From Candidatus Pelethenecus sp. (GTDB taxonomy: Bacteria; Bacillota_I; Bacilli_A; Acholeplasmatales; Anaeroplasmataceae), in NCBI GenBank assembly GCA_045121295.1, contig JBGVFV010000117.1, forward strand, positions 5,349 to 69,348: a stretch of 64,000 nt of DNA, given 5' to 3'. Within the stretch, counting starts at the first letter, position 1; each line of letters begins with the position of its first letter. This document shows positions 7,985 through 52,597 of this stretch, in pieces. The notes under the pieces were generated by a model that worked only from the letters and a program-made list of their open reading frames with translations, made no database searches and had not been told where the DNA came from. The translations under genes were made by a program, and so were the position numbers.

Positions 7985-8011
7985 GTTTTACCTAAAAGAA
8001 GATTAATAGGG
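7985..8011. other. attL-type junction (murC half-site + element arm)
   Basis: GTTTTACC followed by TAAAAGAAGATTAATAGGG. That arm is the near-reverse-complement of the arm at 52577..52589. Confidence 0.75.
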
Positions 8012-8080
8012 AAAAATACCTAAATTAATCTCATTTATATATATAATAATATAAAACAAGATTAAAGGGGAAAAGAAAAA
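8006..8080. repeat. element-terminus repeat, copy 1
   Basis: ATAGGGAAAAATACCTAAATTAATCTCATTTATATATATAATAATA... recurs in direct orientation at 10644. The first ~46 nt differ by 1 indel and 1 substitution, and looser similarity runs for ~70 nt. Confidence 0.85.
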
Positions 8081-8115
8081 CATCCAATTAAGGATGCCTT
8101 CATCATTTCAGTTAT

Positions 8116-8946
8116 TTATAATAAAGTAAATATAAATAATCCTAAACCAAAAGATAGAGCATTAGCTAATAAAGGATAAAGTATTATTGTCCAACGTTTC
8201 TTTTCTTTTAGGAATATTTGATATACTGCAAATTCAATTATTAATATAATGAATTCTAAAGCAAATAATAGGAATATCGCATTTAATATACCTGAGTTAT
8301 ATAATGATATATTAATTATAACATTTAAGAATATTTGTGTTACTAAGTTTGTAATTAATACCACATTGAAATTACGTTTAGTGTATAGTCTAAATAGGAA
8401 GAATAATCCTAATTCTATTGCTAGTGTAAGTATTATTCTTATTATAAGGTTAAGTATTTCACTAAAATAATTATATGTTTTAGTTATAGTGATATCTTCA
8501 GGTGTTGTAACTGTTCCTGTAGAAAAGTCTATTTCATAATAAGTTGCGTATGCATACATTTCTAAAGCTTCAGTTGCAATTAAGAATTGATCATTTTTAT
8601 ATATTACAATTTTATATACTTCTGGGCAATAATAAGTAAATCTTATTTCTGATTCACCATTACATTTATAATATTCAGTGATCCATTTGAATCCTTCATC
8701 ATCTTTATATTCCATGATTGGATTATATTTAACATAATCTATTTCATATTCTTGCCAACGTTCATAATCATAGTTTGGCCCCCATGCTTCTTTAGCGGCA
8801 AAACATGCAACATATTCTCCTTCTATTCCTTTGATGGTAATATATGAAGCAGGTTTTGGTCCCATATCAGCTGAAACTGTTGTTGTACCAACTGAAAAGA
8901 TTAATAGAAATAATAATACACCTAATAATACTTTAATTTTCTTCAT
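8116..8946 (-). CDS. secreted/membrane protein of unknown function (signal peptide + polytopic C-terminal half)
   Basis: The MKKIKVLLGVLLFLLIF signal is preceded by GGGTGGTG, so the ATG at 8946 is preferred over the GTG at 8958. The C-terminal ~110 aa form several hydrophobic spans. Confidence 0.6.
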   Translation of the reverse strand: MKKIKVLLGVLLFLLIFSVGTTTVSADMGPKPASYITIKGIEGEYVACFAAKEAWGPNYDYERWQEYEIDYVKYNPIMEYKDDEGFKWITEYYKCNGESEIRFTYYCPEVYKIVIYKNDQFLIATEALEMYAYATYYEIDFSTGTVTTPEDITITKTYNYFSEILNLIIRIILTLAIELGLFFLFRLYTKRNFNVVLITNLVTQIFLNVIINISLYNSGILNAIFLLFALEFIILIIEFAVYQIFLKEKKRWTIILYPLLANALSFGLGLFIFTLL

Positions 8947-8979
8947 AAGTTTCACCACCCTTCTTAATTTTGTACTTTT

Positions 8980-10335
8980 CTAAGAATTTCTAATTATTTG
9001 TTCATAAGGATAATATTCGGATAAATCATCAGTAAGGAAATATTGTTTATACATTCTGGCTATATGTCTATCATCATCCTCAAAAAAGAATTGTAATAAT
9101 TCATCTTCATTAGTTTCTAGATTAACTCTATAAAAATAATATGCATAATTTTCCATCATCAAAGTAGGAACCCTTTCTATTTTAAAATAGTATTTCATTC
9201 CATTATAAGTATAGATATCTCGATACCTAATATTAAAAGTATATTCATAATCCTCAAGAATATTAGTACTTAAATTATAATAAACATATTCACTGGTGAA
9301 TTCAGTATAATATCTTGATAATAATGGTTTAGTAATTGTAATTTCAATAAATTCAAAACGATTATCTATTAACCGATTTATTTTGTATTCTTTTTCACTA
9401 TCAAACACATAAATTTCTTCTAGATATACACTATTTTCATTTGCTCGTACTTGATATAAAACATTATTCAAAACTAAATCTTCAAAAGTTATTTTAACAT
9501 CTTTAAATTTACCAGATTTATATTCAAAATATGTTTGATCTCCTAATACAAAAGTGTTTGGTTTTTGTTCAATATAATATATATATTTGTTATCTTCATA
9601 TTTAATTGGATTATATATTTTCTTACTCAAAAAATCATAATATAGTAAATTAACTTTCAAATATGTATTGTCATCTATTTTTTCAGATTTATATTGAACA
9701 ATAGATAAAATATCTCTTCCATCAATTTTCTCAATGTAATAATTGTTTGAAGATATTTCTAATTGTTCAAATTCAAACTCATCACAACTAGTAACATATA
9801 AATTATCCTTAGTTTTAGCAGTTAAATAATTATTATTTATTTCATACGAATCACAATCAAACTCTTCTAATTCATTAGTTATTAAGTTTAATTTTTGTAG
9901 TGAGCCATCTCCTTGAAATATTACATATGTATCCTTGATCAATAAAATTTTATTAAATGAGGATACTTCTTTTTCACATTTATATATATATTCTATTTTT
10001 TCTTCCCTTAAAGAATAAATAAGGAAAAATGAATGATATTCGCGTCTGTATGACCCAAAATATGTATAAAAAGTTAAATATGCTTTATCATTTTTAAATT
10101 TACTGTCTAATACTGTAGAAATATCATAAACTTCATCACCAAGTGTTACTTCACTTAAGTAAACTTCTTCATCTGTTAAATTAGTTTTGCATCTTAAGTT
10201 AGCATAATAAATATAATTACCATCCCATTCAACATATTCACTCTCATCTGGAATATAATCTTTTCTTTGTCTTCCACATGAGCTTAAACTTATTACAAAA
10301 ATAAATAGAACAATTAACATTAAAAACTTCTTCAT
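8980..10335 (-). CDS. putative lipoprotein, unknown function
   Basis: MKKFLMLIVLFIFVISLSSCG gives a lipobox LSSC. The rest is a Tyr/Asn-rich, beta-strand-like sequence. The ATG at 10335 is preferred over the upstream ATG at 10347. Confidence 0.6.
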   Translation of the reverse strand: MKKFLMLIVLFIFVISLSSCGRQRKDYIPDESEYVEWDGNYIYYANLRCKTNLTDEEVYLSEVTLGDEVYDISTVLDSKFKNDKAYLTFYTYFGSYRREYHSFFLIYSLREEKIEYIYKCEKEVSSFNKILLIKDTYVIFQGDGSLQKLNLITNELEEFDCDSYEINNNYLTAKTKDNLYVTSCDEFEFEQLEISSNNYYIEKIDGRDILSIVQYKSEKIDDNTYLKVNLLYYDFLSKKIYNPIKYEDNKYIYYIEQKPNTFVLGDQTYFEYKSGKFKDVKITFEDLVLNNVLYQVRANENSVYLEEIYVFDSEKEYKINRLIDNRFEFIEITITKPLLSRYYTEFTSEYVYYNLSTNILEDYEYTFNIRYRDIYTYNGMKYYFKIERVPTLMMENYAYYFYRVNLETNEDELLQFFFEDDDRHIARMYKQYFLTDDLSEYYPYEQIIRNS

Positions 10336-10491: not shown

Positions 10492-10502
10492 TCTAATTTA
10501 TG

Positions 10503-10646
10503 TTATTTTTTCTTTCTAATAGCAAGTAAATATATAATTATCCATACTGTAGTTACTGCAGACATTATCATAAATGAAGGCATACCAGCATCTAAATCTT
10601 GTAGCATTCTTTTAAATGCTAGTCTATTAAATGTTGTACCTGCATA
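10503..10646 (-). pseudogene. remnant of a large serine recombinase gene fused to an unrelated hydrophobic tail; no start codon
   Basis: 10582..10646 matches 18380..18444 (inside the recombinase at 17095..18600) at 62 of 65 nt. It encodes YAGTTFNRLAFKRMLQDLDAG, then diverges to MPSFMIMSAVTTVWIIIYLLAIRKKK*. The upstream side is replaced by the element-terminus repeat. Confidence 0.8.
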
Positions 10647-10717
10647 GGGAAAAATACTAAATTAACCTCATTTATATATATAATAATAAGTCAAGATCAA
10701 CAGGGATAAAATAAAAA
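10644..10717. repeat. element-terminus repeat, copy 2
   Basis: Direct repeat of 8006..8080 (ATAGGGAAAAATACTAAATTAACCTCATTTATATATATAATAATA...). Confidence 0.85.
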
Positions 10718-10804: not shown

Positions 10805-11617
10805 TTATAAAGTAAGATTTTTGATTGTTTTTTCAAACTCAAACAACTCATATGCCTTAATATAATAACCTAAATTCATCATACTTTTCGTTTCTAAAGT
10901 CACTGATTGTTTTGTTGGTATGTCCACAACCTTGATTTCTCCATTTAAATTAATTGTTGGACCAGCGTATAAAATACCTAAAAAAATTATTCTTTGTCCT
11001 CCTAAATAAGTATTGCCATCTTTTGATGTATAACCATTTTCATTTAGAATAAAAATTGGTGATCCAGAAGAGCCTGGAAAACACGCCATATCTACTACTC
11101 CTATACCTGATTCATTAAAATCAATAGCTGGATGATTTGAAGTATAACCAGTCCTAAATAACGGTAAATTATTTTTTTTATCCCACAAACCAGTTGGATA
11201 CCCAACCATTACAACTGATTCTAATGCCGATAAAGTTTCTAATTTTTCTTTATTATAAATAATATCATTATTGATTGAGGTGTAAAAAACATTTTTACCC
11301 GTCTCTGCTTTAACTTGATTAATCAATGCTTCAATAAAAGTAAAACATAAATCTTTATTAGGATGAAAAATCCATCCACCTTCGTATTGTATTTTATAAT
11401 TTTCATCTAACAAAGTACCATTTTCATCTTTTAAATGTAAAAGGAAAGTAACTTTTTCAGATTCATTATCATTTACAACATGTTTGTTCGTTACAATTGT
11501 AGGATACTCCTTATTGTCAATATTAAATATATAAAAAAATCCAGTACCACAACTTCTATCACTTACAATTCTTACAGTACTATACATCATTTGTTCAGAT
11601 ATTGTTTTTGGTTCCAT
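10805..11617 (-). CDS. leaderless (cytoplasmic) trypsin-like serine protease (S1/Trypsin_2 type)
   Basis: 270 aa with catalytic-His context IVTNKHVV and catalytic-Ser motif CFPGSSGSPIF. There is no signal peptide. RBS AAGGAG lies upstream. Confidence 0.7.
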   Translation of the reverse strand: MEPKTISEQMMYSTVRIVSDRSCGTGFFYIFNIDNKEYPTIVTNKHVVNDNESEKVTFLLHLKDENGTLLDENYKIQYEGGWIFHPNKDLCFTFIEALINQVKAETGKNVFYTSINNDIIYNKEKLETLSALESVVMVGYPTGLWDKKNNLPLFRTGYTSNHPAIDFNESGIGVVDMACFPGSSGSPIFILNENGYTSKDGNTYLGGQRIIFLGILYAGPTINLNGEIKVVDIPTKQSVTLETKSMMNLGYYIKAYELFEFEKTIKNLTL

Positions 11618-11820
11618 TTTATTCTCCTTTTATTATCTATTAATACTCTGAGTTCATTATATCATTTTTAAATACATTTTCAAATACATGATAATTACAT
11701 TAACTTTTTAATCATTTGCATATATTTCCATTAATAATAAAAAAATATAATTGCTTAATCTATAAGGAAAATACACATTTCATCAACAAAATGAAAATAG
11801 GAATCTTCATAAGACTCCTA

Positions 11821-12222
11821 TCATTCACTTTTGCTTTCTCTTTTTTTAACAAGTTTATAATCTTGTGAAATTGGCAATTTAATCGTTTCTATTTCAGCGG
11901 TTATTCGCTCAATAACTTTTCTAAGATATGCATTTTCTAATTCTAATTCCTTTATTTGAACCATAAGGTTTTTATTAACCTTTTTATAATGAGGTTCACG
12001 TAATACATTCACTCCATCTTCTAAATAACATTTTGCTGTTTTAGGTATGATATTAATATTATAAAACTTATTTATTTTTCTTGCTGTATTTGGAGTTATA
12101 GTAATCTTACCATTTTCTAATTTTGAAATCATTGATGCACTTAATCCAACCTGACTAGCAACATAAACTAATGTCAATCCACGAGATTCTCTAAGATGCT
12201 TTAAAACTTTCCAATCATCCAA
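11821..12222 (-). CDS. XRE-family HTH protein with coiled-coil tail
   Basis: 133 aa with TTG start. HTH is GLTLVYVASQVGLSASMISKLENG; the C-terminus is heptad-like. Confidence 0.65.
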   Translation of the reverse strand: MDDWKVLKHLRESRGLTLVYVASQVGLSASMISKLENGKITITPNTARKINKFYNINIIPKTAKCYLEDGVNVLREPHYKKVNKNLMVQIKELELENAYLRKVIERITAEIETIKLPISQDYKLVKKRESKSE

Positions 12223-12224
12223 TG

Positions 12225-12665
12225 TTACTCATCCTCTTCTGCTTTGGGAAATAACCCATCAATATGTTCATGTACTTTATCCAAAAATAACTGAGCATCT
12301 GCAATAAGTTTATAAACTCTTGATAACTCTGCTAATAATACAGAATTAATTCTTTTAAGTTCTTTATTTAATACCTTATAATGATGTTCATCTAGAATAT
12401 CTTCATCCTCTACCTCTTCATTCTTATATTTCTTTTTATTTTGAGGTCCTTTTGGACGAGGAGTAGGCTTATAATCAACTTTATATGGTGATAACTCTAT
12501 ACCATATATTTCTGTTAACTTATTTGCCATAGCTGAACTTAAATTTGCATGGCCTAGTTCAACCTTACGATAATATTCATAGGTCGTTCCTATTATTGTA
12601 GCAACCTGTTCTTGAGTTAATCCCATTTCTTCTCTTCTATTTTTTAATATTTCAAAAGACTCCAT
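12225..12665 (-). CDS. XRE-family HTH protein
   Basis: 146 aa with HTH GLTQEQVATIIGTTYEYYRKVELG, a basic/acidic linker and a helical tail. Confidence 0.65.
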   Translation of the reverse strand: MESFEILKNRREEMGLTQEQVATIIGTTYEYYRKVELGHANLSSAMANKLTEIYGIELSPYKVDYKPTPRPKGPQNKKKYKNEEVEDEDILDEHHYKVLNKELKRINSVLLAELSRVYKLIADAQLFLDKVHEHIDGLFPKAEEDE

Positions 12666-12683
12666 TTTTTTCTACTTCCTTTC

Positions 12684-13082
12684 CTAGTCTACTTTATTAA
12701 TTTTAAATTCATCAAGACATATTTCTCTATCTGCAACATATGCTTCAGTTAAATCAAATTCGACTATTTTATGTTTTTCGTGAAAAACTCCTTTTACTTG
12801 ATATCTTGAGTTAGTATTCCACTTATAATGATGAAATAGCTTTCTAACAAATCTTATAGAGTTAAAAACTTTTCCCATTTTTTTAACATGTTCCGTATAT
12901 ACAATATGTAGTGAACTCCTATCACTTCTATCACTTGAAGTATAACTCACCTTGTTTTCATCAAGGTTTATTAGCAATACTATATATTTTGGATTACCTA
13001 GTAGCTCTAAAATTTTATGAGAAATCCTAAAGGTTCCAGGACCATAGCTAAATGTAGTAGTTATCTTTTTACTTATTCGCAT
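12684..13082 (-). CDS. small protein sharing a domain with the C-terminus of the 611-aa recombinase
   Basis: The ATG at 13082 is preceded by GGTGA; the track ORF starts at a TTG at 13106. The pattern IVLLINLDENKVSY...YKWNTNSRYQVKG...IVEFDLTE parallels 13069..13788 and the tail of 13781..15616. Confidence 0.5.
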   Translation of the reverse strand: MRISKKITTTFSYGPGTFRISHKILELLGNPKYIVLLINLDENKVSYTSSDRSDRSSLHIVYTEHVKKMGKVFNSIRFVRKLFHHYKWNTNSRYQVKGVFHEKHKIVEFDLTEAYVADREICLDEFKINKVD

Positions 13083-13788
13083 TATTATCACCGCTGATAA
13101 TATCAAACAATGTTGTTTGTCCAGTAGCTATATCTTCCTTTTGAACCTTTTTCTTTTTTGCCTTTCTAATTTGCTCATATTCAAGCATTTGATATCCCTT
13201 AACTATAAAATCTAAAGTCTTAGCATGTTCAATAACTGGTAATCCAAACGAATCTTTCCAATCTTGTGGATAATAAGGATTTTGTTTTTTCTTTGTACCG
13301 TCCTCATTTTTTTCAATAGGAGTATATACTTCGGTTTCTGTAAAATCAAATAGTAATAGAAACTGTCCTTCATGTTTTACTAAATTTCCTTGTAGCTTAT
13401 ATTTATAATCTGGTATCCAACCTAGTAATGAAAAAAGTTTAGCACAAAATAATCTACATAATATCTTTCTAGGAACCTTTTTTTCTTGTCGCTTGTTAAA
13501 CCTTGACCATTTTACAGCATCCTTAGCATCTGAATCACACATTTTAATTGCCATCTTTTTATCTGTTGGATTAATTAATATATGTATATAATCTGTGTCA
13601 AACTTACTAACACACGCAGTATTAAATGTTATACTATCGTATTTAAAGTTTACAGCAGCATCATATGTATGAGCATAAAATTCTCTTCTTACAACTTGAT
13701 ACCCATCATAAGAAAATTCAACTTCTTCATCAACATCGCCACCATCTTCAATGTCTTCATTTTTTAAAATAAATTCTTTCTCACTCAT
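13069..13788 (-). CDS. hypothetical protein with the same recombinase-tail-like domain
   Basis: 239 aa with RBS GGAGGG. It overlaps the recombinase stop by 8 nt. Motifs: FNTACVSKFDTDYIHILINPTDKKMAIKMCDSDAKDAVKWS...YKYKLQG...LLLFDFTE. Confidence 0.55.
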   Translation of the reverse strand: MSEKEFILKNEDIEDGGDVDEEVEFSYDGYQVVRREFYAHTYDAAVNFKYDSITFNTACVSKFDTDYIHILINPTDKKMAIKMCDSDAKDAVKWSRFNKRQEKKVPRKILCRLFCAKLFSLLGWIPDYKYKLQGNLVKHEGQFLLLFDFTETEVYTPIEKNEDGTKKKQNPYYPQDWKDSFGLPVIEHAKTLDFIVKGYQMLEYEQIRKAKKKKVQKEDIATGQTTLFDIISGDNNANK

Positions 13789-15616
13789 AAGTTCCCTCCG
13801 TTAATTTTAATAGATGCTTTTTAACAAGTTCCTTAGCTTCAGCAAGCCATTCTGTGTCATCACTTTCAATTTCAATTTCTTCAGTATTAAGATTCCACTT
13901 CTTTAATTGTTCTGTTAAATATAATCTCATTGAATATATATCTTGGTAATAATCATTACCAAAATGATTGATATAATATTCATCTAATAATGATATTAAT
14001 TTTAATCTTTTTTCTTCCTCATCATTTTCTATTTCTTCCCAATACAATGCTTCTGAATCTTTTAAATCAAACAAAACGACTGTTTTACCATTATTTTGTC
14101 TTCTAACTCCAACCATTCTATATCTATATGATTCATCCCATTCCATTTCTTTATATAAAATCCTAGAGAATCCTCCACTAGTTTTAGTAACTGGTACAAT
14201 CCTATCATTCTTTTCACTCATCCATTTAATAGCAAATGGGTCACTTGAATCACATTCAAGAATGGCTAAAAGCATTTCATTGGGTTCAAATAATAGCTTT
14301 ATATATCTAGAGTCATTCATTTTATCAATACACGCTCGATTAAAATACATTTGATTAATTTTAAACCAACACATTGGACTAGCTGTAGTGGTTCCTATAA
14401 TTTGTGAATTCACCTTTTCAAACCCTGACAAATTAAATGCTGATACTTTTCTTGAATCAATGCTTTTCACTTTAGGGAATATTATATTTCCAGCTTCATC
14501 CTTTTCATATGCAAAGCTACTAGCAAATTTATAGTTCTCTATTGTAAAGCTTGGGTAATTTACAGCCACAGGAACGAACCCTTTCAATAATCCTTCGCTA
14601 ATATATCTTAATCTTGGTATTTCAGTAAAGTTTCTATATTTTCTAGCTTTTTGAATATCTAAAGCTCTGTAGTACATATCTAAAGGTACGATAGGTTCAT
14701 GATGTTCTAATAATCTATATTTATTTCTTTGGTTAACATTCTTTACTGTTTTATGTGTTGTATAGTCTGGAGTATAAGTCTTTCGTGCAATAATCATACC
14801 TGCTCTACGTTCATTAGTAATCATATTGTTGATTACTCCAGGATTCCAATTAACATCACCTTTTTTGTTAGATTTATATCCTAAGCGAGTCATAATATCA
14901 CATATATCAGCTGGAGAATATCCGGTTACATACATCGAATAAACTAGTCTAACAATTTCAGCTTCATCTTCAACTATTGTATATCTATCTTCTTTATCGA
15001 TATCAACAGTATATCCAAATAGCTCTGGAGTTAAAAAGTTACCTCTTGAGAATCTACTTTCAATTGACCAGTTCATTATTTCACTTTTGGTATGTGATTC
15101 CTCTTGAGCAAATATGGATAGCAAGTTAAGCATAACGTCACTTGAACTATCAGCTGTATCTATATTTTCAGTTTCAAAGAATACTCGCACTGGAGGATTT
15201 AATCTTTTAAGTTGACGAATCGTATCAATACAGTCAACAACATTACGAGAAAAACGTGCAACTGCTTTTGTAACTATTAAATCAATTTTCCCTTCTTTAC
15301 AATCTCTAATCATTTTATTAAAGCCATCTCTTTTTCTTAGACTTGTACCAGAGATTCCTTCATCGCTATAGATTCCAGCATTGATCCAGTTAGGATGTTT
15401 TTCGATATATTCTTCATAATATATTCTTTGAAGTTCAAATGAAGATGCTTGTTCTACGTTATCAGTTGATACACGACAATATGCACATACTCTAAGAGTT
15501 CCTTCAGTAGACCTTAAGCTCACTGGTTCAACTGCTTGAATAACTTCAATTTCATCTTGCTTATATCCTTTTTGTCTTGCTTTTGCTCGTAAGCGAGCCT
15601 CTTCATTATTAGCCAT
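13781..15616 (-). CDS. large serine recombinase
   Basis: 611 aa with resolvase catalytic region RVCAYCRVSTDNVEQ and VARFSRN, a recombinase domain, and an extra ~190-aa C-terminal extension. Confidence 0.85.
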   Translation of the reverse strand: MANNEEARLRAKARQKGYKQDEIEVIQAVEPVSLRSTEGTLRVCAYCRVSTDNVEQASSFELQRIYYEEYIEKHPNWINAGIYSDEGISGTSLRKRDGFNKMIRDCKEGKIDLIVTKAVARFSRNVVDCIDTIRQLKRLNPPVRVFFETENIDTADSSSDVMLNLLSIFAQEESHTKSEIMNWSIESRFSRGNFLTPELFGYTVDIDKEDRYTIVEDEAEIVRLVYSMYVTGYSPADICDIMTRLGYKSNKKGDVNWNPGVINNMITNERRAGMIIARKTYTPDYTTHKTVKNVNQRNKYRLLEHHEPIVPLDMYYRALDIQKARKYRNFTEIPRLRYISEGLLKGFVPVAVNYPSFTIENYKFASSFAYEKDEAGNIIFPKVKSIDSRKVSAFNLSGFEKVNSQIIGTTTASPMCWFKINQMYFNRACIDKMNDSRYIKLLFEPNEMLLAILECDSSDPFAIKWMSEKNDRIVPVTKTSGGFSRILYKEMEWDESYRYRMVGVRRQNNGKTVVLFDLKDSEALYWEEIENDEEEKRLKLISLLDEYYINHFGNDYYQDIYSMRLYLTEQLKKWNLNTEEIEIESDDTEWLAEAKELVKKHLLKLTEGTYE

Positions 15617-15625
15617 ACATACCTC

Positions 15626-16561
15626 TTATAACTGCCAATACCAAATACCATTTTTCTTAATAGATTTGATACCTAATCTTTTCTTTATTCTGTATAATGT
15701 TCTTTCGCTAGCTAAATCACCAATCATTTCTTTGATATCAGTAAAACTTTTTTCCTCTTCTGATAGTGACTCTAATATCATATTAACTACTAAATCATTC
15801 GAACTATTAATGGTTGGTGTTTCTTCTTCATCATACTCACCAAGCCAATTTATACTTCCATCATTATTTATTCTAAATGCAATAGGATTTCCTTCTTTTG
15901 CAAGACTGTTCTTTACTTGAAATATTATTCTTATTCTAGAATCATTTTCTGACTTTTTTAAATGTAATATACTTCTAGCAATAGCACTAAAATCTACACT
16001 TCCAATTCCTCGATAAAGGTCCTTACCTCTTTCATTTTTATTTAAATGACCAACTAAAATTATTGCACAGTTTGTATCACTAGCAATTTTCGATAAGTTC
16101 TTTAATACTTGTCTAACATCAATAACATTAATTAAGGATTTACCTTTAGAAAAAAATGATTGAATAGGATCTAGAATTAATAATTTAATATTATTTTCTA
16201 AAATACAGTTTAAAAAAGAATCATCCTCTAGATTGATAATTTCATCATTTTCAATGTAAAGAATGTTGTCTTGATTAGCATTTAGCTTCTTTAATTTTGG
16301 TGAGATTGTATCTTCAGCAGAATCTTCTGCATTTTGATAAATCACCTTGTGTGGAGTTGCTATATTAAAATTGTTAATATTAAATAGGTTAATACCATTT
16401 GAAATTGTTGACGCTATAATTATTGATAAAAGACTTTTACCGTTCCCTGGATCACCTTGTAATAATGTTAGCTTTCCGTAGGCAATGTATGGATACCAAA
16501 GCCAATCAATTTCTTTAGATTTAACTGAACTATATTGTAATAGTTTAAAATTATTAGACAT
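15626..16561 (-). CDS. AAA_25/RepA-like RecA-fold ATPase
   Basis: Walker A LLQGDPGNGKS and Walker B-like LLILDPIQSF, plus VGHLNK. The ATG at 16561 has RBS GGAGGAATAGC. Confidence 0.7.
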   Translation of the reverse strand: MSNNFKLLQYSSVKSKEIDWLWYPYIAYGKLTLLQGDPGNGKSLLSIIIASTISNGINLFNINNFNIATPHKVIYQNAEDSAEDTISPKLKKLNANQDNILYIENDEIINLEDDSFLNCILENNIKLLILDPIQSFFSKGKSLINVIDVRQVLKNLSKIASDTNCAIILVGHLNKNERGKDLYRGIGSVDFSAIARSILHLKKSENDSRIRIIFQVKNSLAKEGNPIAFRINNDGSINWLGEYDEEETPTINSSNDLVVNMILESLSEEEKSFTDIKEMIGDLASERTLYRIKKRLGIKSIKKNGIWYWQL

Positions 16562-16602
16562 GCTATTCCTCCACACTGAGTCATAGATATTATAGTACTA
16601 AC

Positions 16603-16624
16603 AAAATAAAAAGCGTGAACGCTT
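16603..16624 (-). terminator. Rho-independent terminator
   Basis: Hairpin AAGCG-tgaa-CGCTT with a minus-strand T-run, after the stop at 16657. Confidence 0.55.
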
Positions 16625-16656
16625 AGGTGTAATTCGTATCACGCTATAGTATAAAT

Positions 16657-16965
16657 TTATTTCCAATCTTTTAAGCTACGAGTAAGATTTGCAATTATTA
16701 ATCTATCCCTATCATCAAGATTATTATAATCGCTTAACAATGCTAATTCATCTGGATACATAGTATCTTCACTATCAAAAAACATAGATAATGATATTTC
16801 AAATGCTTCACAAATTAATTCTATTGTTTTAAGATTAGGGACTAAATCTTTCTCATTCATTATCTTATATAAAGTAGATTGAGTAATGCCTGCTTCCATA
16901 GCAAGTTTGTTAATAGTCCAATTTTTAGCTTCTAATAATTCTTTAATTCTAGCTTGATAATTCAT
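16657..16965 (-). CDS. XRE-family transcriptional regulator
   Basis: MNYQARIKELLEAKNWTINKLAMEAGITQSTLYKIMN. The ATG at 16965 has GGAGG 6 nt upstream. Confidence 0.75.
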   Translation of the reverse strand: MNYQARIKELLEAKNWTINKLAMEAGITQSTLYKIMNEKDLVPNLKTIELICEAFEISLSMFFDSEDTMYPDELALLSDYNNLDDRDRLIIANLTRSLKDWK

Positions 16966-16991
16966 AGTTACCTCCATATACATAAATAGAT

Positions 16992-17096
16992 GTCAGTCTT
17001 GTCAGTCTTCTTTAAAAGCATTACATTAAGGCAGTTTTACCAACTTTAAGATTGCCAAAATTAAGGCTGTCATCTTTAAAATTTGGTGTCAGTCTT
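16992..17096. repeat. three copies of GTCAGTCTT (two in tandem, one 87 nt away) in the intergenic region
   Basis: Copies at 16992..17000, 17001..17009 and 17088..17096, plus TTAAGGCAGT/TTAAGGCTGT at 17026 and 17061. They lie between the stop of the 501-aa recombinase gene and the start of the XRE gene. Confidence 0.6.
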
Positions 17097-20185: not shown

Positions 20186-20188
20186 AGC

Positions 20189-20988: not shown

Positions 20989-21003
20989 ATTATTCCTCCT
21001 TAC

Positions 21004-21050
21004 GCCACTATAGTAGCACCTACGAGTATATTATATACTACTAAAGTGGC
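21004..21050. promoter_or_regulatory. candidate operator palindrome in divergent promoter region
   Basis: GCCACTATAGTAGCA ... TACTACTAAAGTGGC: the arms match at 13 of 15 positions. It lies between the divergent genes 20449..20988 (-) and 21133..21456 (+). Confidence 0.4.
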
Positions 21051-21132
21051 ATTGTCAATATTTTTGTGCAACTTTTGTAGCATTTGTTATTTATTTTAGG
21101 ATGGTTTTGTTTTATAATGGTTTTGGTGATTA

Positions 21133-27660: not shown

Positions 27661-27731
27661 AATTATATTCTCCTTATCATTTATTGTTTTGAAATCTAGG
27701 AGAAGTTATCTCCTAGACTTCTTTTAATTTA

Positions 27732-30938: not shown

Positions 30939-30990
30939 TTTTTATATATCCTCCATGTTAATATTTATTTAAAAGAAGAGAAAAGAATAA

Positions 30991-36792: not shown

Positions 36793-36809
36793 TGCTCTTT
36801 ACTCCTTTT

Positions 36810-40227: not shown

Positions 40228-40252
40228 CTCACTGATAAATTGTGATTTGAAA

Positions 40253-41221: not shown

Positions 41222-41290
41222 AATATGCCTCCTTTTTGTTCCTCCGATGAGGTATTACCACGAGACGGAGGCACATCATGACCTATATGC

Positions 41291-43427: not shown

Positions 43428-44919
43428 TATAACTTACCTCCTCGCCTAATATTTTTTTTAATTTTTCATAGTTTATTCGCATTTCTTTAGATGCGTCAAA
43501 CCATAAATCATAATGTTGTTTAATAGTAAGTGTTTCACTTAACTCGTTTGAGGTGTTTTTAGTTACATAAAGAGGAATACTCAATGAGTAATTATTACAT
43601 TTTATATCTTGTATAGTTACAACCTTTGAAAACTCATCGATATCGTCATATTTTTCATATGCACTTGCAATCTTTATGATATGAGTTTCTTCTAAATAGC
43701 TTTGAGCATTCTTCCTTGTAACTTCATTTACTGCATTTATAAATAATACTTGACCTTTACGTTCATGTCTTTTCTTAGTTCTACAAATCATAATACATGC
43801 TTCCATAGGAGAATTATAAAATAAATTAGGACCAAGACCAATTATACATTCAAGTAAATCACTTTTTATAAGTTTTTCACGTATATCTTTTTCTTCATTT
43901 CTAAAAAGAACTCCATGTGGCAATAAAATAGCACACCTTCCACTTTCATCATTTAAACTTTTTAAAATGTGCTGGATAAAAGCATAATCTGCTCTGCCTT
44001 GAGGGGGGACACCTAAAAAATTTCTTCCATATTTATCGCTTTCAAAAGAAGTTCTATCCCATTGTGATATAGAATATGGAGGATTAGCTAAACACATATC
44101 AAATTTCTTTAACATACCATTTTCTATAAATGCTGGTGATCTAAGCGTGTCATCATTGACTATATTAAAATCTTTTACCCCATGAAGAAATAAATTCATT
44201 TTTCCTATTGCTGCAGTTAAAGAGTTAATTTCCTGACCGTATGCTGCTACATTTCTCCATTCCGCTCCTTTGCCCTTTAAATAAGCAATAGATGAAATCA
44301 ACATACCGGCACTTCCACATGTAGGATCATAAATAGATTCTCCGCTCTTTGGCTTTAAAATTTCAGTCATTAAATGTACAACTGTTCTATTTGTGTAGAA
44401 TTCTTGAGCTGTATGACCACTATCGTCAGCAAACTTTTTAATTAAATATTCGTAACCTTGACCTAATTCATCTTCAGGACAATTAGAAATAGACAATATT
44501 TTAGAACTAAAATGTTCTATGATATCTTTTAATAATCTATCTGGTAATCTATTCTTATTTGTCCAGGCAGCATCTCCAAATACTCCCACAAGCTTTTTTC
44601 CGTTTACTTTTTCTATTTTTCTAAATGCTGTAACAATCGCTAATCCAATGTCTGATGTAGTTTCTCTAACATCGTTCCAATGAAATCCTTTTGGAACTAT
44701 AAAAGTATGAAGCTCATCATCAGAAAAATCTAAAGCATCATTACCGTATTTTTGGAAAGCTTGTTCTGTTTCTTCATCATATACATCACAAATTCTTTTA
44801 AAAAACAATAAAGGAAATATGTATTGTTTATATGCACCTGCGTCAATATTTGTACGTAGCAATTGTGCAGAACCCCATAAATACGATTCTAATTCTTCTA
44901 ATGGTATTCTATTGTTCAT
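43420..44919 (-). CDS. hsdM: type I R-M N6-adenine DNA methyltransferase subunit
   Basis: 499 aa with IFPLLFFKRICDVYDEE, IYDPTCGSAGML and LANPPYSISQW. Confidence 0.9.
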   Translation of the reverse strand: MNNRIPLEELESYLWGSAQLLRTNIDAGAYKQYIFPLLFFKRICDVYDEETEQAFQKYGNDALDFSDDELHTFIVPKGFHWNDVRETTSDIGLAIVTAFRKIEKVNGKKLVGVFGDAAWTNKNRLPDRLLKDIIEHFSSKILSISNCPEDELGQGYEYLIKKFADDSGHTAQEFYTNRTVVHLMTEILKPKSGESIYDPTCGSAGMLISSIAYLKGKGAEWRNVAAYGQEINSLTAAIGKMNLFLHGVKDFNIVNDDTLRSPAFIENGMLKKFDMCLANPPYSISQWDRTSFESDKYGRNFLGVPPQGRADYAFIQHILKSLNDESGRCAILLPHGVLFRNEEKDIREKLIKSDLLECIIGLGPNLFYNSPMEACIMICRTKKRHERKGQVLFINAVNEVTRKNAQSYLEETHIIKIASAYEKYDDIDEFSKVVTIQDIKCNNYSLSIPLYVTKNTSNELSETLTIKQHYDLWFDASKEMRINYEKLKKILGEEVSYNE

Positions 44920-47314
44920 TTATATATCCTCCTCTCTTTAATAATTCAATCATTTTAGTTTCTGAATCAATTACCTTTTTATATGCTTCTAGAAATTGTT
45001 TTTCAACTTCAGCAGCAGATAAAGATTCTATTTTTCTTTTTTCAATATAATTATTTAAAGCTAGTGAATACCCATTTTTCTTGATTTCTGAGATTTCCAC
45101 CACTTTACATATTTCAACTTTATTTTCATAATTTTGATACACTTTAAATAAATCATCTATGTTATCTTGAGTCATAATAACTTGAGCACGTTTTGGAGTA
45201 TAAAATTTTGTTCCATCTATTAAACACACTTTTCCTTTATGTGACTCTTTTTTATTATTATTTAACAATAAAATGCATGCTGCAACTCCTGTAGAATAAA
45301 ATACGCCACTCACTAGAGAAATAACGCATTCAAGTTTATCAGATTCTATTAACTGAGCACGCATTTCTGCTTCTTTTCCACTCCTAAACAAAACACCTTG
45401 AGGAAGAACAACTGCACATCTTCCTCCTTGTTGTTTCATCGAAGAAACCATATGTTGAAGCCATGCAAAATCGCCATTTGAATCAGTTGGAGTTTCCCAA
45501 ATGTTTCTTCCGTATGGGTCATTCGAAAATTGGTCTGAGCCCCACTTATCTAAAGAAAAAGGTGGATTTGCAATTACACAATCAAATGTTCGAACTTTTC
45601 CAGCTTTTAAAAATTTTGGTTCTCTTAAAGTATCACCTTGCAAAATTTTAAAATCTTTTGCTCCATGTAAAAATAAATTCATTCTTGCAATTGCAGATGT
45701 TGCCAAATTTTTCTCTTGACCATAAATACGTCCATAAGTAAGTCTATCATTATTAATATGATGAATTGCTTCTATTAGCATTCCTCCTGTACCACATGCT
45801 GGATCGTATACATCATCACCAGGTTTAGGATCTAACAAATTCACTAATAACTTTACAATAGAACGAGGCGTATAAAACTCCCCTGCATTCTTCTTTGAAA
45901 GGTCAGCAAATTTTTTTATTAGAAATTCATATGCATCCCCCATAACATCTGCAGAATAATTATTATTACCTACCTTTATTGATGACATATGTTCGACTAA
46001 ATTTTTAAGTCTTTCATCTGATAATTTTGTTTTATCTGTCCAAGTAGCATCATCAAAACTACTAAATACACCGCTTAATGTATCAGGATTTGCACGTTCA
46101 ATACCACTCATAGCATTAACAATAGCTGTTCCAATATTAGAACTAGTATTTCTAACATCATTCCAGTGACAGCCTGAAGGAATAATAAAACTATGATTCT
46201 CAGCAAATGATGCAAATTCTACATCACCGCCAGATTCTTTTAATGCTTTTTCTGTTTCTTCATCATAAACATCTGATATTCTTTTAAAAAATAAAATAGG
46301 AGTTACATAACTTTTATACTCATCTTGGTTAATTGGACCACGTAAAATATTACATGCTTCAAATAAGTGGTTAAATAACTTAGTACTTGTAGTTTCTTCT
46401 GATGCGCCTTCAGTAGACTCTAAATCTTCATCTGCTTTGTTTAACACTTCTTCCATCATATTTTCTCTTCCTCCTGTTTTTACTTCTTTTTTCTTTGTTT
46501 TAATTTTTACCTTTCCTTTTTCCAGGTCAGGTTCATATGCATTTTCAAACTCAATTAAAAGTTTTAATAATCTTTCATCTAAATAAGTTAATATATGTTT
46601 TCTTATATCAGTTGGTATGCCATAGTAAGCTTCTGCGATACTACCTGTAATAGCTGCTAATGTATCACTGTCACCGCCAATGGATATAGCATTTCTTATA
46701 GCATCTTCAAATGAAGTTGATTCTAAGAATGCTTCTATTGCCTGCGGAACTGTATCTTGACAAGTTTCATTAAATTGATATGAATCTCTAATTTCATCAA
46801 GATTAAAGTTCATAGGATAATAATGTTTATTAATATAATCTCTAATTTCTAAAATATTACATCCAGTTCTAGCTAAATATATTGCTACTACAGTTGCTTC
46901 AGCACCCTTAATTCCTTCTGGATGATTATGCGTTACTTCAGTTACTTTTTTAGAAAGTGAAATGGCTTCATCCATAGAATTGGCTACCCAACCACAAGCA
47001 CTTACTCTCATTGCAGCACCATTACCAAAACTGTTATATGGCTGTGGATTATTTGAAAACATCCAATTATGGAAATTACCTCCATAACCAGAGTTAGGAT
47101 AATGTCTTCCTATACTTTGCATATATTCAATTGTTTTTTCACTTAAATTACTATAATCTTTTTCACACTCTAATAATGCTTTTGCAACCGCTAAAGTCAT
47201 TATTGAATCATCAGTAAAAAAGCATTTATAATCTAATAACGTGAATTCTTTTGAACGGTGATTGTTCCATTCATACTTTGAACCAACAATATCGCCTACA
47301 ATTGCACCTAACAT
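44909..47314 (-). CDS. fusion protein: N-terminal ADP-ribosylglycohydrolase (ARH/DraG family) + complete HsdM-type N6-adenine methyltransferase
   Basis: 801 aa in one uninterrupted ORF. ARH motifs: MLGAIVGDIVGSKYEW, FFTDDSIMTLAVA, IGGDSDTLAAITGSIAEAYYG. A Lys-rich linker follows. HsdM motifs: ILFFKRISDVYDEE, VYDPACGTGGML, IANPPFSLDKW. Confidence 0.8.
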   Translation of the reverse strand: MLGAIVGDIVGSKYEWNNHRSKEFTLLDYKCFFTDDSIMTLAVAKALLECEKDYSNLSEKTIEYMQSIGRHYPNSGYGGNFHNWMFSNNPQPYNSFGNGAAMRVSACGWVANSMDEAISLSKKVTEVTHNHPEGIKGAEATVVAIYLARTGCNILEIRDYINKHYYPMNFNLDEIRDSYQFNETCQDTVPQAIEAFLESTSFEDAIRNAISIGGDSDTLAAITGSIAEAYYGIPTDIRKHILTYLDERLLKLLIEFENAYEPDLEKGKVKIKTKKKEVKTGGRENMMEEVLNKADEDLESTEGASEETTSTKLFNHLFEACNILRGPINQDEYKSYVTPILFFKRISDVYDEETEKALKESGGDVEFASFAENHSFIIPSGCHWNDVRNTSSNIGTAIVNAMSGIERANPDTLSGVFSSFDDATWTDKTKLSDERLKNLVEHMSSIKVGNNNYSADVMGDAYEFLIKKFADLSKKNAGEFYTPRSIVKLLVNLLDPKPGDDVYDPACGTGGMLIEAIHHINNDRLTYGRIYGQEKNLATSAIARMNLFLHGAKDFKILQGDTLREPKFLKAGKVRTFDCVIANPPFSLDKWGSDQFSNDPYGRNIWETPTDSNGDFAWLQHMVSSMKQQGGRCAVVLPQGVLFRSGKEAEMRAQLIESDKLECVISLVSGVFYSTGVAACILLLNNNKKESHKGKVCLIDGTKFYTPKRAQVIMTQDNIDDLFKVYQNYENKVEICKVVEISEIKKNGYSLALNNYIEKRKIESLSAAEVEKQFLEAYKKVIDSETKMIELLKRGGYINEQ

Positions 47315-47461
47315 ATTGACACCTCCAACTAATTACACTTAATTTCAATTGTTAAAAATAAATCATTTAGATACAATTAAAACCATATTTTTAATCTTTT
47401 GTATCAAAAAATTTTTTTAAATATAGATAATCTACACAAGATTATCCTTACTTATATTTTG

Positions 47462-48769
47462 TTATTTGATTGAATTAATAGTTGCTATTTGTTGCAATAC
47501 TTCGTTAATTTCATCATCAATTTCACTTATATTTCTATAATTAACAATTTGTTTTTTTACAACATGTCTATTAACAACTAAACTATCATTATTTTCTCTA
47601 ATATCAAGAATATGTTTAAATGTTGAAATATTTTCAACCTCTATTTTCTTACTAACTATTTCATGAATTTTTGAAATTCCTTCGCCAGTCAAATTATTTG
47701 CATTACCATTTTTATACGTAAAATTAAAGTGATCATTATTACTTGCACTAATAAATCCTATGTATTTATCTTTTTTATTTTTTGATAAAACCAATAAGTT
47801 TGTTTGAATCGATGTGGCAGCCCACATTGGAGGAAGTTCAATGATACATTCAATTAAATTTTCGTTAACTAAGTAATTTCTTAGATATTCATAATTTCGA
47901 ACGGTTTTTGTTAAAAAACCCGTAGTTATAGTTAAAATAGCTTTACCTGCTTTGTTTAAGTTTTCTAAAGCTATAATAACATTAGCTATATTTGAATCAA
48001 TCATACCACCATTAATCATATACTTTCTAAACGAATGTTCATTACTATAAAATACCTCTTCAGGCAATTTTTGATTAATAGGACCATCTGCAAATACATA
48101 ATCATACTCAATTTCATCTAAACATTTATAAGCATCTTGACATCTGAAATAAACATTTTCTTTTTTTAATAAAATCATCCTAATTATAGCTATACATAAT
48201 GAATTGTAATTAATATCATTACCAACAGTATGTACATTTTGAGGTAATTTGCTTATAAAAACTCCGTTACCAACAAAAAGATCTAAACATTTTGTGTTTT
48301 CTTGAGGTTCAAACAATTTCACACACAAATCTGCTAAAGACTCGTTAGTAGTATTCATACCTTCTTTTCCTAAAGTTAAAGACAATTTATCTATGTACTC
48401 AATAATTGCTTTTTCTTCATTTTTTAAATCAAATTTAACTAATAATTCAAATACTTTTTCATTATTTCTAAAAATATTTTCATATTGTGCATATAATTCT
48501 CTAGAGAACGAAAATGACGAATTTTTAATATTATCAAAAGTTGTAATTAAATATTCACCAATTAAAGGCATAACATTTCTTCTATAAGTTAATGCTTCTC
48601 TTAAATCTAATAATACATTAAATTTTTCTTCATTATCTGCGAATAATCTATTATCAATAGAGTATTTCAAAAATACTAGGTATACAAATTTATTAAATAA
48701 ATCATAAGAACCTAAATTAGCTCTGATATCACCTAAAAATACATCAAACATTTTTTCTTTATTATTCAT
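47462..48769 (-). CDS. HsdM-like protein with degenerate catalytic motif (DGPI instead of NPPY/F)
   Basis: 435 aa from the ATG at 48769 (RBS GGAGG). It is collinear with the two hsdM genes: CLDLFVGNGVFI vs DPxCGxxGML; VGNDINYNS vs YGQEIN; YVFADGPINQKL vs CLANPPYSISQW; IECIIELPPMW vs LECIIGLGPNLF. Confidence 0.65.
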   Translation of the reverse strand: MNNKEKMFDVFLGDIRANLGSYDLFNKFVYLVFLKYSIDNRLFADNEEKFNVLLDLREALTYRRNVMPLIGEYLITTFDNIKNSSFSFSRELYAQYENIFRNNEKVFELLVKFDLKNEEKAIIEYIDKLSLTLGKEGMNTTNESLADLCVKLFEPQENTKCLDLFVGNGVFISKLPQNVHTVGNDINYNSLCIAIIRMILLKKENVYFRCQDAYKCLDEIEYDYVFADGPINQKLPEEVFYSNEHSFRKYMINGGMIDSNIANVIIALENLNKAGKAILTITTGFLTKTVRNYEYLRNYLVNENLIECIIELPPMWAATSIQTNLLVLSKNKKDKYIGFISASNNDHFNFTYKNGNANNLTGEGISKIHEIVSKKIEVENISTFKHILDIRENNDSLVVNRHVVKKQIVNYRNISEIDDEINEVLQQIATINSIK

Positions 48770-49331
48770 GTTGACCTCCATTAGCAATTAAAGCTTCTAT
48801 TTTTTCTTGTTGTAAATTAATTAACTTATCCAGCAATTGCTTATTTTTACTCATCTTTATAAATTCATTCCCAATTGCCTTTTGTTTTTCTAAAGGAAGT
48901 AATGGAATATCTAAAGATTTCAATTGACTAATTGATAAGATACCAATTGTATTTCCTGTTACAAGTCTTAATACTTGTTCTGAGAAAGCTTTAGAATTAA
49001 TATATGCTAATACATAGAATAAATCGTATCTAAAGTCTTTTAATCTTAAAATAGCACAGAAAGATGGAACAACTAATCCAGAAGTACTAGAATCAATTAT
49101 ACAACCGTTATATGGAGTAGATAATTTAATAATCAAATCTTTTTCCATACTCATCTTTTCTGGTTCTAAGAATACTTTCATTTTATTTTCTACTAATTCA
49201 CTTTCCACTACACTACCGAAATTAATAGCTTTTGGTAATAAAACTTTTCTTATTTCAACCTCATTTATTTCTGTAGTGATTCTTGACATTACTTGACCAG
49301 AACTTACATTAAAAATTTCATTAATTAACAT
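48762..49331 (-). CDS. single-TRD HsdS-like specificity protein
   Basis: 189 aa from the ATG at 49331 (GGAGG 9 nt upstream). It has the conserved LDIPLLPLEKQKAIGNEF plus a coiled-coil tail. Its stop overlaps the start of the downstream gene. Confidence 0.65.
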   Translation of the reverse strand: MLINEIFNVSSGQVMSRITTEINEVEIRKVLLPKAINFGSVVESELVENKMKVFLEPEKMSMEKDLIIKLSTPYNGCIIDSSTSGLVVPSFCAILRLKDFRYDLFYVLAYINSKAFSEQVLRLVTGNTIGILSISQLKSLDIPLLPLEKQKAIGNEFIKMSKNKQLLDKLINLQQEKIEALIANGGQHE

Positions 49332-49746
49332 ATAAATATTCCTCCTCATTATAGAAATAGTTATTATACTTAGAATATTTTCTAACATTTCTAACCATTC
49401 TATTTTTATATATAGTATATTCGTGTTGAATAGGATTTTCTTTCTTAGATGTATTATAATAATCCTCTTCAATTCTTTCATATAAATCTATAATTTTATT
49501 TTGTTCTTGTTTAGAGTGGCAATTAAGATACGGATCAGCTTTATTAATTGTAATTAAATCATCAAATTCTTTTTTGCTTATTACTTTTACATCAATAATA
49601 GCATCTTTATGATGATGCTTCACTCTTGGTGCGTATCTTGCTATCTCAGCTGCGTCTTTTTTATTTTCAGCTTCAATAGGCAACCAAATCTTTATACAAT
49701 TATTAATTCCTACATGACCACATTTAACATAAACCTTACAATACAT
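49321..49746 (-). CDS. hypothetical protein
   Basis: 141 aa from the ATG at 49746 (GGAGG 9 nt upstream): MYCKVYVKCGHVGINNCIKIWLPIEAENKKDAAEIARYAPRVKHHHKDAIIDVKVI... It is the first gene of a three-gene overlapping unit. Confidence 0.5.
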   Translation of the reverse strand: MYCKVYVKCGHVGINNCIKIWLPIEAENKKDAAEIARYAPRVKHHHKDAIIDVKVISKKEFDDLITINKADPYLNCHSKQEQNKIIDLYERIEEDYYNTSKKENPIQHEYTIYKNRMVRNVRKYSKYNNYFYNEEEYLYVN

Positions 49747-51489: not shown

Positions 51490-51534
51490 AATACCCCTCC
51501 AATCTATTCTTTATTATTATAATTTAGTATCTAA

Positions 51535-52287
51535 TTAACTAGAATAAATACCAGCGCTTCCATTTCTTTTTTTATTCCATCCACTTTTTTCTTTATAATG
51601 TTCTAATGAAATATCAGGATTTTCTAATAACAACTTATAACATCTTTTAATATTCGTATTGTGACAAGACCACGATGTTACTAATTTCCACGCGTTCATT
51701 TTATCTAGAATTGGAATAATTGTTTGTTTCATTTCATAATTTGATAATCTAACAGGTTCGAAGATAGATTTATATTTTCTATTAAAAATAAAGTTAATAA
51801 TTCTATATTCTATTTCTGTCATTTCATCATAATGTTCTAATATGTGCATAATTGTATAAAATTCATCGTCATTAATAGAATGCCCTTTATAGGGTTTAGC
51901 ATATTGCACTCCTTGTCTTCCAGGATAATATTTTTTATTAACCAAATCTATAAACACCCAATTACATCCCCAGAATCCTTTTGCTGAACCAAAACCATGT
52001 TCATTTAACCATTGATATATTTCATGATTGTAATTTTCATTTTCATGGTCATAGAATCTTACTAATAGTAAAGTATTATCAATGTAAAAATCTTGAGCGA
52101 ATTTAATATAATTCATATCCATAAGATTACAATAATCCTCATATGAAATATCTGGATTTTTAACAAAAATGTTATATGCTTTTTTCCATACTGTTGTTGT
52201 AAGAGAAATAACAAGTTCTTCAGTAGGACATTGTATTTTTTCTAATTTATCAATTAAGTATTTAATTTTTTCATCTTCTACAGACAT
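51535..52287 (-). CDS. hypothetical protein with duplicated NPDIS-x-E-x-Y motif
   Basis: 250 aa from the ATG at 52287 (RBS AGGTGG). The motifs KAYNIFVKNPDISYEDY and KRCYKLLLENPDISLEHY flank a central region. Confidence 0.5.
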   Translation of the reverse strand: MSVEDEKIKYLIDKLEKIQCPTEELVISLTTTVWKKAYNIFVKNPDISYEDYCNLMDMNYIKFAQDFYIDNTLLLVRFYDHENENYNHEIYQWLNEHGFGSAKGFWGCNWVFIDLVNKKYYPGRQGVQYAKPYKGHSINDDEFYTIMHILEHYDEMTEIEYRIINFIFNRKYKSIFEPVRLSNYEMKQTIIPILDKMNAWKLVTSWSCHNTNIKRCYKLLLENPDISLEHYKEKSGWNKKRNGSAGIYSS

Positions 52288-52518
52288 ATAAATTCCACCT
52301 TTCGTCAGGCAATACATAATATAATAGTAATTGAAATAATGTTATTTTAATTATATTATAATTTCATTTATAAAACAATAAATATAGATAGACCATTTAT
52401 TTTGGTTACTGAATTCAAATATACAAATAACCTAAAATTATATAAAACGAGTAGTAGTACGTTAATGGGTGTTTTTTAATAATTTTTACCCTTTTTTAGC
52501 TATTTTGATCTATTTTTA

Positions 52519-52581
52519 GAAAAAAATAAAAAAGGGCGAATCGAAAAAACCTTGATTTTACGCCATATTTTCGTCGCCCTT
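52519..52581 (-). terminator. strong Rho-independent terminator at the element's right end, overlapping the att arm
   Basis: On the minus strand: AAGGGCGACGAAAA-18 nt-TTTTCGATTCGCCCTT (14 bp with a 2-nt bulge), then TTTTTTATTTTTT. It begins at the stop codon of the truncated murC 5' fragment. Confidence 0.7.
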
Positions 52582-52597
52582 ATAATCTCGTTTTACC
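52577..52597. other. attR-type junction (element arm + murC half-site)
   Basis: CCCTTATAATCTC followed by GTTTTACC, then murC sequence ATGAGTTCC. Confidence 0.75.

Follow-up and report, generated by a model that had tools for sequence, protein, structure and literature searches.

A large integrative element splits a murC-like gene at its Walker A codons in a Candidatus Pelethenecus genome, and a sister element splits murD

A large integrative element interrupts a gene of peptidoglycan precursor synthesis in Candidatus Pelethenecus sp., a member of the Anaeroplasmataceae. The window analysed here is a stretch of 64,000 nt of contig JBGVFV010000117.1 (positions 5,349 to 69,348; assembly GCA_045121295.1), to which all coordinates without a contig name refer. 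In this window, a minus-strand MurC-like gene is interrupted directly after the codons for ...GTHGKT by an element of 44.6 kb. The explanation favoured here, to which a probability of roughly 0.6 is assigned, is that the element is integrative, probably mobilisable and equipped with defence genes, and that it constitutes a tolerated, in principle reversible knock-out of murC at the Walker A codons. A second element, syntenic with the first, cuts murD of the same genome, also at its P-loop codons.

Both halves of the interrupted gene are recognisable as parts of a Mur ligase. The N-terminal fragment (52580..52915, minus strand) consists of 108 native residues up to IGVAGTHGKT, followed by RL and a stop codon contributed by element DNA; the translation of this open reading frame (ORF) ends in ...IGVAGTHGKTRL*, and it matches Pfam Mur_ligase and positions 1-112 of the TIGR01082 model. 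The C-terminal fragment (7087..7983, minus strand; 298 aa) opens with MTSSML at the native methionine that follows GKT, matches Mur_ligase_M and Mur_ligase_C, and covers model positions 117-400. Joining the outer flanks yields a 407-aa frame reading GTHGKTMTS, which aligns without gaps over residues 1-400, at 46-50% identity, with contiguous genes of 411-445 aa from 11 congeneric genomes, GTHGKT-MTSSML standing opposite GT(S/H)GKT-TTTKML of these genes. The two ligase fragments and the in-frame join, which a preliminary description of this DNA had read from its letters, are thereby confirmed. That description had also pointed to an 8-nt repeat, and GTTTTACC is present both at the junction of the N fragment with the element (52590..52597, where CC at 52596-52597, GG on the coding strand, is the putative crossover dinucleotide) and at the junction of the element with the C fragment (7985..7992). 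By itself this repeat proves nothing, because the octamer is found 10 times on the plus strand of the window, in a genome of only 27.9% G+C. The ATG lying exactly at the junction, to which attention had likewise been drawn, belongs to the native gene, since the uninterrupted allele also reads GKTM; it is not conserved at other occupied sites.

The boundaries of the element were fixed to the base by naturally empty sites. A protein search returned P0001, an uninterrupted protein of 407 aa with 99% identity that reads GTHGKTMTSSML. Its gene lies on five independently assembled Logan metagenome contigs of the same species (runs SRR25030035, 36, 47, 52 and 72), which keep the same murC neighbours, a guanylate kinase upstream and an ATP-binding cassette (ABC) ATPase downstream. 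In blastn alignments with the window, these contigs match at 98.6-99.8% identity in two pieces that end exactly at 52590 and 7992, with the 8 nt GGTAAAAC contained in both. Because the alignments break at these positions, the element comprises 7993-52589 plus one core, or 44,605 bp. The uninterrupted gene that had been proposed as a check therefore exists, and the bacterial attachment site (attB) previously reconstructed from the joined flanks is correct to the base.

The occupied form is equally well documented. Contigs from run SRR25030054 span both junctions at 100% identity and without a branch, the junction of N fragment and element was assembled from SRR25030067, and both murC junctions are present in a second NCBI metagenome-assembled genome (MAG), GCA_045127575.1; the occupied form is therefore no assembly artefact. 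The SRR25030067 contig halts 30 nt (k-1 for k=31) into the sequence held in common with the empty site, which fits a branch in the assembly graph and gives a weak hint that occupied and empty forms coexist in one sample. Between the murC of the window and the empty allele there are only 8-9 synonymous and 4 conservative changes, and in the second occupied MAG three of the four variable residues of the C fragment, and the single one of the N fragment, are of the empty type. The insertion thus stands on two murC allele backgrounds, neither of them decayed, which is compatible with integration that was recent or occurred repeatedly, or with selection that continues to act through excision. Within the species the element is polymorphic, and it has been recently mobile.

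The sister element in murD occupies contig C86 from about 16260 to 53334 and positions 1-902 of contig C80, with murD fragments on both contigs. The N fragment on C86 ends in SASNGKT followed by QCYD..., and the C fragment on C80 opens with NCVL-GKTTTV behind foreign DNA, with no start codon at the junction and none for 67 codons. In GCA_045127575.1, which is of the same species, murC is occupied and murD is intact (P0121, 410 aa, 99% identical; 269 bits, above the MurD equivalog cut-off of 212); the two elements are therefore independently polymorphic. The genome holds 11 large serine recombinase genes, eight of which form four overlapping pairs of a recombinase A (533-545 aa) and a recombinase B (481-501 aa), and the pair in the window is closest to that of the murD element (A 45%, B 35% identical). 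The synteny of the two elements takes in secreted proteins of 443/513 aa and 1068/1124 aa, a membrane P-loop protein of 624/620 aa (67% identical), a Rep_trans initiator, a UvrD-type helicase, an XRE gene, a protein of 179/183 aa, and recombinases A and B. Smaller paired-recombinase elements on contigs C100 (14827-31000) and C34 (12855-20322) keep only Rep, the helicase, the small protein, A and B, and have no large surface-protein block; a palindrome scan for their attachment sites recovered the murC pair together with equal-scoring noise, and their targets were not found.

The attachment sites of both Mur-ligase elements have the form expected of serine recombination. In the murC attP, the element-borne site obtained by joining the element ends, 15 of 19 positions are symmetric around CC, as the preliminary description had it. 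Six other possible centres in the murC core score only 2-7 of 19, so that no other centre is comparable, and against the background of the window only 2 of 63,940 positions reach 15/19 (3e-5). The murC attB is barely symmetric (4/19), and serine-integrase attB sites usually show little symmetry. The murD attP is symmetric at 15/19 positions (20/25) around GG, and the two attP sites have in common the pattern ...TTTTA-GG-TAA(A/G)ACG.... When the intact murD, which represents the empty site, is aligned to C86 and C80, the stretch common to the two alignments is exactly 2 nt long, GG. To the right of this GG, the N-side junction of murD continues with TAAGACG from the element versus CAAAACC in attB, and because the two differ there, the exchange can be placed at the GG that opens the Gly codon of GKT. 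In murC, the GG/CC lies within the 8 nt that both junctions have in common. Serine integrases exchange strands at a central dinucleotide and duplicate nothing else of the target; this pattern, together with the exact empty sites and the palindromic attP, upholds the earlier proposal of a precise insertion by a serine recombinase.

The same codons have been struck in other hosts. Contig sequences place a murC cut at this GG in at least three further species, one of them belonging to another genus. Anaeroplasma sp. fecal_MAG_287, which represents that other genus of the family, has a recombinase A that is 89% identical and a MurC that is only 41-43% identical, and its element abuts a murC C-terminal fragment starting ...TCT-GG-TAAAACT. 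An ENA contig from a species whose MurC is 75% identical reads ...TTCT-GG-CAAGACCATG, and on a JGI contig from a distant species an element arm nearly identical to that of the window (CCCTAGTAATCTTCTTTTA) is followed by GG-TAAGACC. Several more database proteins are MurC C-terminal fragments that begin just past the site. Among species-representative genomes the split state is rare, with 2 of 54 murC genes and 1 of 50 murD genes affected; one further candidate, murD of genome G010, was rejected because its short open frame reflects a scaffold gap. As a separate observation, a distant A+B pair (37% identical) of uncultured Bacilli from rabbit gut (L035:16800-21593) lies upstream of a truncated penicillin-binding-protein gene, whose reading picks up again close to the K-T-G motif, with intact murE, mraY, murD and ftsW following immediately. 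The truncated gene may be another wall-gene target, the other junction lying beyond the locus.

The host genome appears to hold no replacement for the split ligase. In the assembly (a MAG of 2.12 Mb in 132 contigs, 95.2% complete, 2.8% contamination), no second murC and no Mpl was found, and no protein matches the murC model better than the two fragments do; the remaining Mur-domain proteins of the genome are MurE, MurF, MurD, FolC and a weak MurE-like paralogue. The suggestion in the preliminary description that the host might have a second murC is thus not borne out by the assembly. Its premise that murC is normally essential likewise fails to hold for this family. The Anaeroplasmataceae contain walled, sporulating species and wall-less species side by side, and a 2024 study reported that mur genes are retained in 40-60% of their genomes and spo0A in most (PMC10868615). 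Among 106 species genomes of the family, murC was present in 54 and absent from 52, including some that are 99-100% complete, and murD was present in 50; in one genome (G087), murC and murD are both pseudogenes full of stop codons. With about half of the species genomes devoid of the gene, murC is not reliably essential here, and in SRR25030054 it was a strain lacking both MurC and MurD that assembled without a branch. The distribution of Spo0A follows that of murC almost genome by genome. Within genus g18, murC and spo0A were found in 15 and 14 of 40 genomes, the same ones except for a single genome that is 64% complete. The genome of the window itself encodes Spo0A (321.7 bits, cut-off 200) and SpoIVA (472 bits, cut-off 460), both above curated cut-offs, so that the spore-forming host implied by the earlier comparison with sporulation elements is supported at the level of its genes.

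In the proposed mechanism, the A+B pair would recombine its palindromic attP (...TTTTA, centre GG, TAAAAC...) with the Gly-Lys-Thr codons of the Mur-ligase ATP-binding loop. The pair is the candidate catalyst of the reaction between attP and attB by virtue of its association with this target in murC, in murD and in the element of the other genus. Integration cuts murC into a head of 108 residues and a body of 298, which would turn off the only MurC-type ligase of the genome, and the sister element would do the same to murD. The loss is presumably tolerated, because the family has lost peptidoglycan synthesis many times, and the insertion strain is the dominant form in at least one sample. The element should also be able to excise and thereby restore murC exactly, since neither its recombinases nor its junctions are damaged, the site varies within the species, and the element has passed from genus to genus; control would most likely lie with its own repressor-type switch.

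Several points weigh against this explanation. Among the contigs on record there is neither a circular form carrying attP nor an excision product, and on none of them is the 276-aa end gene followed by the 250-aa one, the order of neighbours that would betray a circle. No directionality factor was identified among the element genes, and wall deficiency of the cells bearing the insertion is something that we infer. At 95% completeness, the assembly leaves a second murC on unassembled DNA conceivable. The intact MurC-like allele reaches 228 bits on TIGR01082, below the equivalog cut-off of 335.1 (Mpl: 95); the gene is accordingly called MurC-like and its exact substrate is deduced, murC being by far the best family. 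Finally, other wall genes are intact (MurE, MurF, a MurG-like protein, MraY and three penicillin-binding proteins), which implies that selection for wall synthesis still acts, or did so until recently.

The main rivals are, in order of interest, that the rearrangement is coupled to sporulation, that the insertion is dead, and that the split enzyme still works. According to the first, the vegetative cell needs neither MurC nor MurD, and excision of the elements is confined to the mother cell during sporulation, where it restores both genes for the synthesis of cortex peptidoglycan. In walled bacteria murC and murD have housekeeping roles; if vegetative cells of this host lack a wall, the two genes might serve the cortex alone. 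Such a skin-type arrangement would suit a host with Spo0A and SpoIVA above their cut-offs, a family in which murC and spo0A co-occur nearly genome by genome, and the preservation of both murC fragments, and it has precedents that use large serine recombinases (PMC4191935, PMC5595907, PMC5025042). However, the element is polymorphic rather than fixed in the species, murC is split in only 2 of the 54 murC-bearing species genomes, and the element carries replication and mobilisation genes and has moved between genera. The recombinase operon is preceded by a consensus promoter of the vegetative type, beside a divergent repressor gene; nothing there stands out as a sporulation promoter, and murC is not sporulation-specific. 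A skin-type element should be stably inherited in its lineage and excised under a mother-cell sigma factor; the polymorphic site, the two murC alleles, the replication and mobilisation genes and the vegetative-type promoter beside the XRE gene all speak against the resemblance drawn in the preliminary description, and this reading is considered unlikely.

A dead insertion, incapable of excision, in a strain heading for permanent wall loss would represent one more independent loss in the family. Wall-less relatives are common, one relative (genome G087) has murC and murD pseudogenes, no excised form occurs among the contigs on record, and a fossil end with accreted modules (described below) amounts to decay at the element edge. 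Yet none of the three recombinase genes is damaged, nor is either junction or either murC fragment; the few synonymous and conservative changes given above are all that separates the occupied alleles from the empty one, and the 89% identical recombinase A in another genus testifies to recent mobility; we hold this alternative to be improbable, if the least so of the rivals. That the two pieces, a head of 110 aa and a body of 298 aa, assemble into an active MurC is very unlikely. The C fragment does have its ATG exactly at the junction, with an AGG created by the element end 7 nt upstream, and read-through transcription from the co-directional element genes is possible, but the cut falls inside the nucleotide-binding fold, right after the P-loop. 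Moreover, the ATG is native, other occupied sites lack either the ATG or the AGG, and the murD fragment has no start codon for 67 codons. A chimeric or misbinned contig, with the element not truly inside murC, might be suspected in a MAG of 132 contigs and 2.8% contamination; the recurrence of the same junctions in two Logan runs and in a second NCBI MAG effectively refutes it, and its likelihood is negligible.

The tolerated, in principle reversible knock-out remains the preferred explanation, and it can be compared with several known systems. Like SPbeta in spsM and skin in sigK of B. subtilis (SprA/SprB and SpoIVCA), gin in gerE of B. cereus and skinCd of C. difficile, the murC element is a serine-recombinase element inside a protein-coding gene of a spore-former, whose exact excision would rebuild the gene and whose attP is an imperfect palindrome around a 2-nt crossover (PMC4191935, PMC5499854, PMC5595907, PMC5025042). 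Unlike them, it hits a housekeeping wall-precursor ligase instead of a mother-cell gene, is polymorphic and recently mobile, has paired recombinases and a vegetative-type promoter, and possesses a sister whose insertion into a paralogue falls on the same motif. The maintenance of two neighbouring large serine recombinase genes as a pair within an integrative island recalls CcrA/CcrB of SCCmec (the staphylococcal cassette chromosome, SCC, of Staphylococcus). CcrB is indeed the best NCBIfam match of all three recombinases in the window, but at 70-103 bits against cut-offs of 900 they are not members of the Ccr family. SCC enters rlmH at its 3' end and does not destroy the gene, whereas the murC element cuts its target gene mid-way.

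Elements of the ICEBs1/Tn916 type offer a further parallel, as they combine a Rep_trans initiator/relaxase, a PcrA/UvrD helicase, a helix-turn-helix (HTH) repressor-type gene divergent from the excision operon, and defence cargo, all of which have counterparts here. The murC element differs from them in using serine instead of tyrosine recombinases, in having no recognised VirB4/ConE, coupling-protein or wall-hydrolase family, and in its conserved block of 624-, 315-, 1068- and 443-aa proteins, which matches no described family. In active lysogeny, the Listeria phage phi10403S/A118 at comK acts as a reversible switch through precise excision. The murC element could similarly switch its host gene on and off by precise excision; unlike the comK phage it is not recognisable as a phage, and neither excision nor a condition that triggers it has been observed here.

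A literature search returned no paper linking Mur ligase genes with serine-recombinase attachment sites. Wall loss in Mollicutes-type bacteria is an old question, and the present case offers a concrete genetic agent that inactivates murC and murD. Mobile DNA would thus be able to switch off wall-precursor synthesis in a lineage bordering walled and wall-less bacteria. The insertion strain is abundant enough to assemble, and strains of the same species with intact genes occur in other samples of the run series, providing a natural near-isogenic pair for asking whether growth without peptidoglycan is possible and reversible. For recombinase biology, the system represents a paired serine-recombinase family whose attB consists of Walker A codons constrained by a protein motif, in two paralogous genes and across genera. 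A bolder extension, which must be regarded as doubtful, is that elements targeting the Mur-ligase GKT form a reversible switch between walled and wall-less states in spore-forming Anaeroplasmataceae. If so, integration would shed the wall, possibly allowing escape from phages and wall-targeting antibiotics alongside the defence cargo, and excision would restore it, for instance for the spore cortex; failed excision would be a direct cause of the repeated, independent peptidoglycan losses toward the Mollicutes.

Nearly all genes in the body of the element (7993..52589, minus strand) are co-directional with murC, and those discussed below lie on the minus strand unless stated otherwise. Large serine recombinase A (18584..20185; 533 aa), the candidate integrase subunit, has Resolvase, Recombinase and Zn-ribbon domains and a YCRLS motif, and recombinase B (17095..18600; 501 aa) overlaps its end by 17 nt, giving the conserved A+B pair. 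A third serine recombinase (13781-15616; 611 aa) lies beside an AAA_25 ATPase. All three are matched by PF00239 and PF07508 and show visible Y-x-R-x-S motifs, and A is also matched by PF13408. The recombinase operon begins, in all four sibling elements, with a gene for a 179-aa protein with an HELRH motif (20449..20988 in the window), for which no family match was obtained in Pfam, PHROGs, NCBIfam or PDB; an ImmA-like role would be a guess. Before this operon lies a consensus promoter, TTGACA-17 nt-TATAAT (21030..21058), as read from the sequence, and divergent from it an XRE-type HTH gene (HTH_3; 21133..21456, plus strand), a candidate repressor with a homologue in the sibling elements. This layout suggests repressor control, as in many integrative elements.

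The backbone shared with the murD, C100 and C34 elements (21483..24704) consists of a UvrD/PcrA-like helicase (620 aa), an 81-aa ORF and a Rep_trans rolling-circle initiator/relaxase (374 aa). It adjoins a conserved block (24854..32322) that encodes the membrane-anchored P-loop protein of 624 aa and three secreted, C-terminally anchored proteins of 315, 1068 and 443 aa. None of the four matched a Pfam, PHROGs, NCBIfam or PDB family, and the block may encode a previously undescribed machinery for transfer or morphogenesis. Gut metagenomes contain more than 200 close, uncharacterised relatives of the 624-aa protein, and the protein occurs in 19 of the 106 family genomes, some of which have no murC; the element family must therefore also use other insertion sites. 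Its structure model has a pLDDT (predicted local distance difference test score) of 63.5, falling below 50 across the ATPase part, and a PDB profile search gave hits at the level of the Walker A motif only, including one weak hit to chain 2r2a. A self-transmissible integrative and conjugative element would combine a relaxase with a coupling protein and a VirB4-family ATPase; no large ORF of the element matched the VirB4 or VirD4 families, and the recognised transfer-related genes are confined to Rep_trans and the UvrD helicase. A mobilisable element or a new transfer system is possible. In PHROGs, the Rep protein is the sole match of the element, which is not recognisable as a phage.

A variable region that is absent from the murD element (10805..16983) encodes a trypsin-like protease (PADLOC PDC-S45, 328 bits), two XRE regulators, the third serine recombinase with its AAA_25 ATPase, and an HTH protein. 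Next to it, at 10582..10717, the fossil end consists of a 65-nt remnant of recombinase B, 95% identical to 18380-18444, which abuts a second copy of the terminal sequence of the element matching about 8010-8080; the 2.6 kb between the two terminal copies hold genes for a membrane protein and a lipoprotein. This arrangement suggests that an insertion, tandem or nested, once took place and that a deletion came later. The defence cargo (34846..49481) comprises an M78-peptidase/HTH protein, a type I HsdR, hsdS cassettes with a tyrosine recombinase, HsdM, an ADP-ribosylglycohydrolase-HsdM fusion and a methylase-like/S-like pair. In this cargo (44909-47314 and 39712-43427), the ADP-ribosylglycohydrolase domain is fused to a type I HsdM and adjoins the hsdS cassette locus with its tyrosine recombinase.

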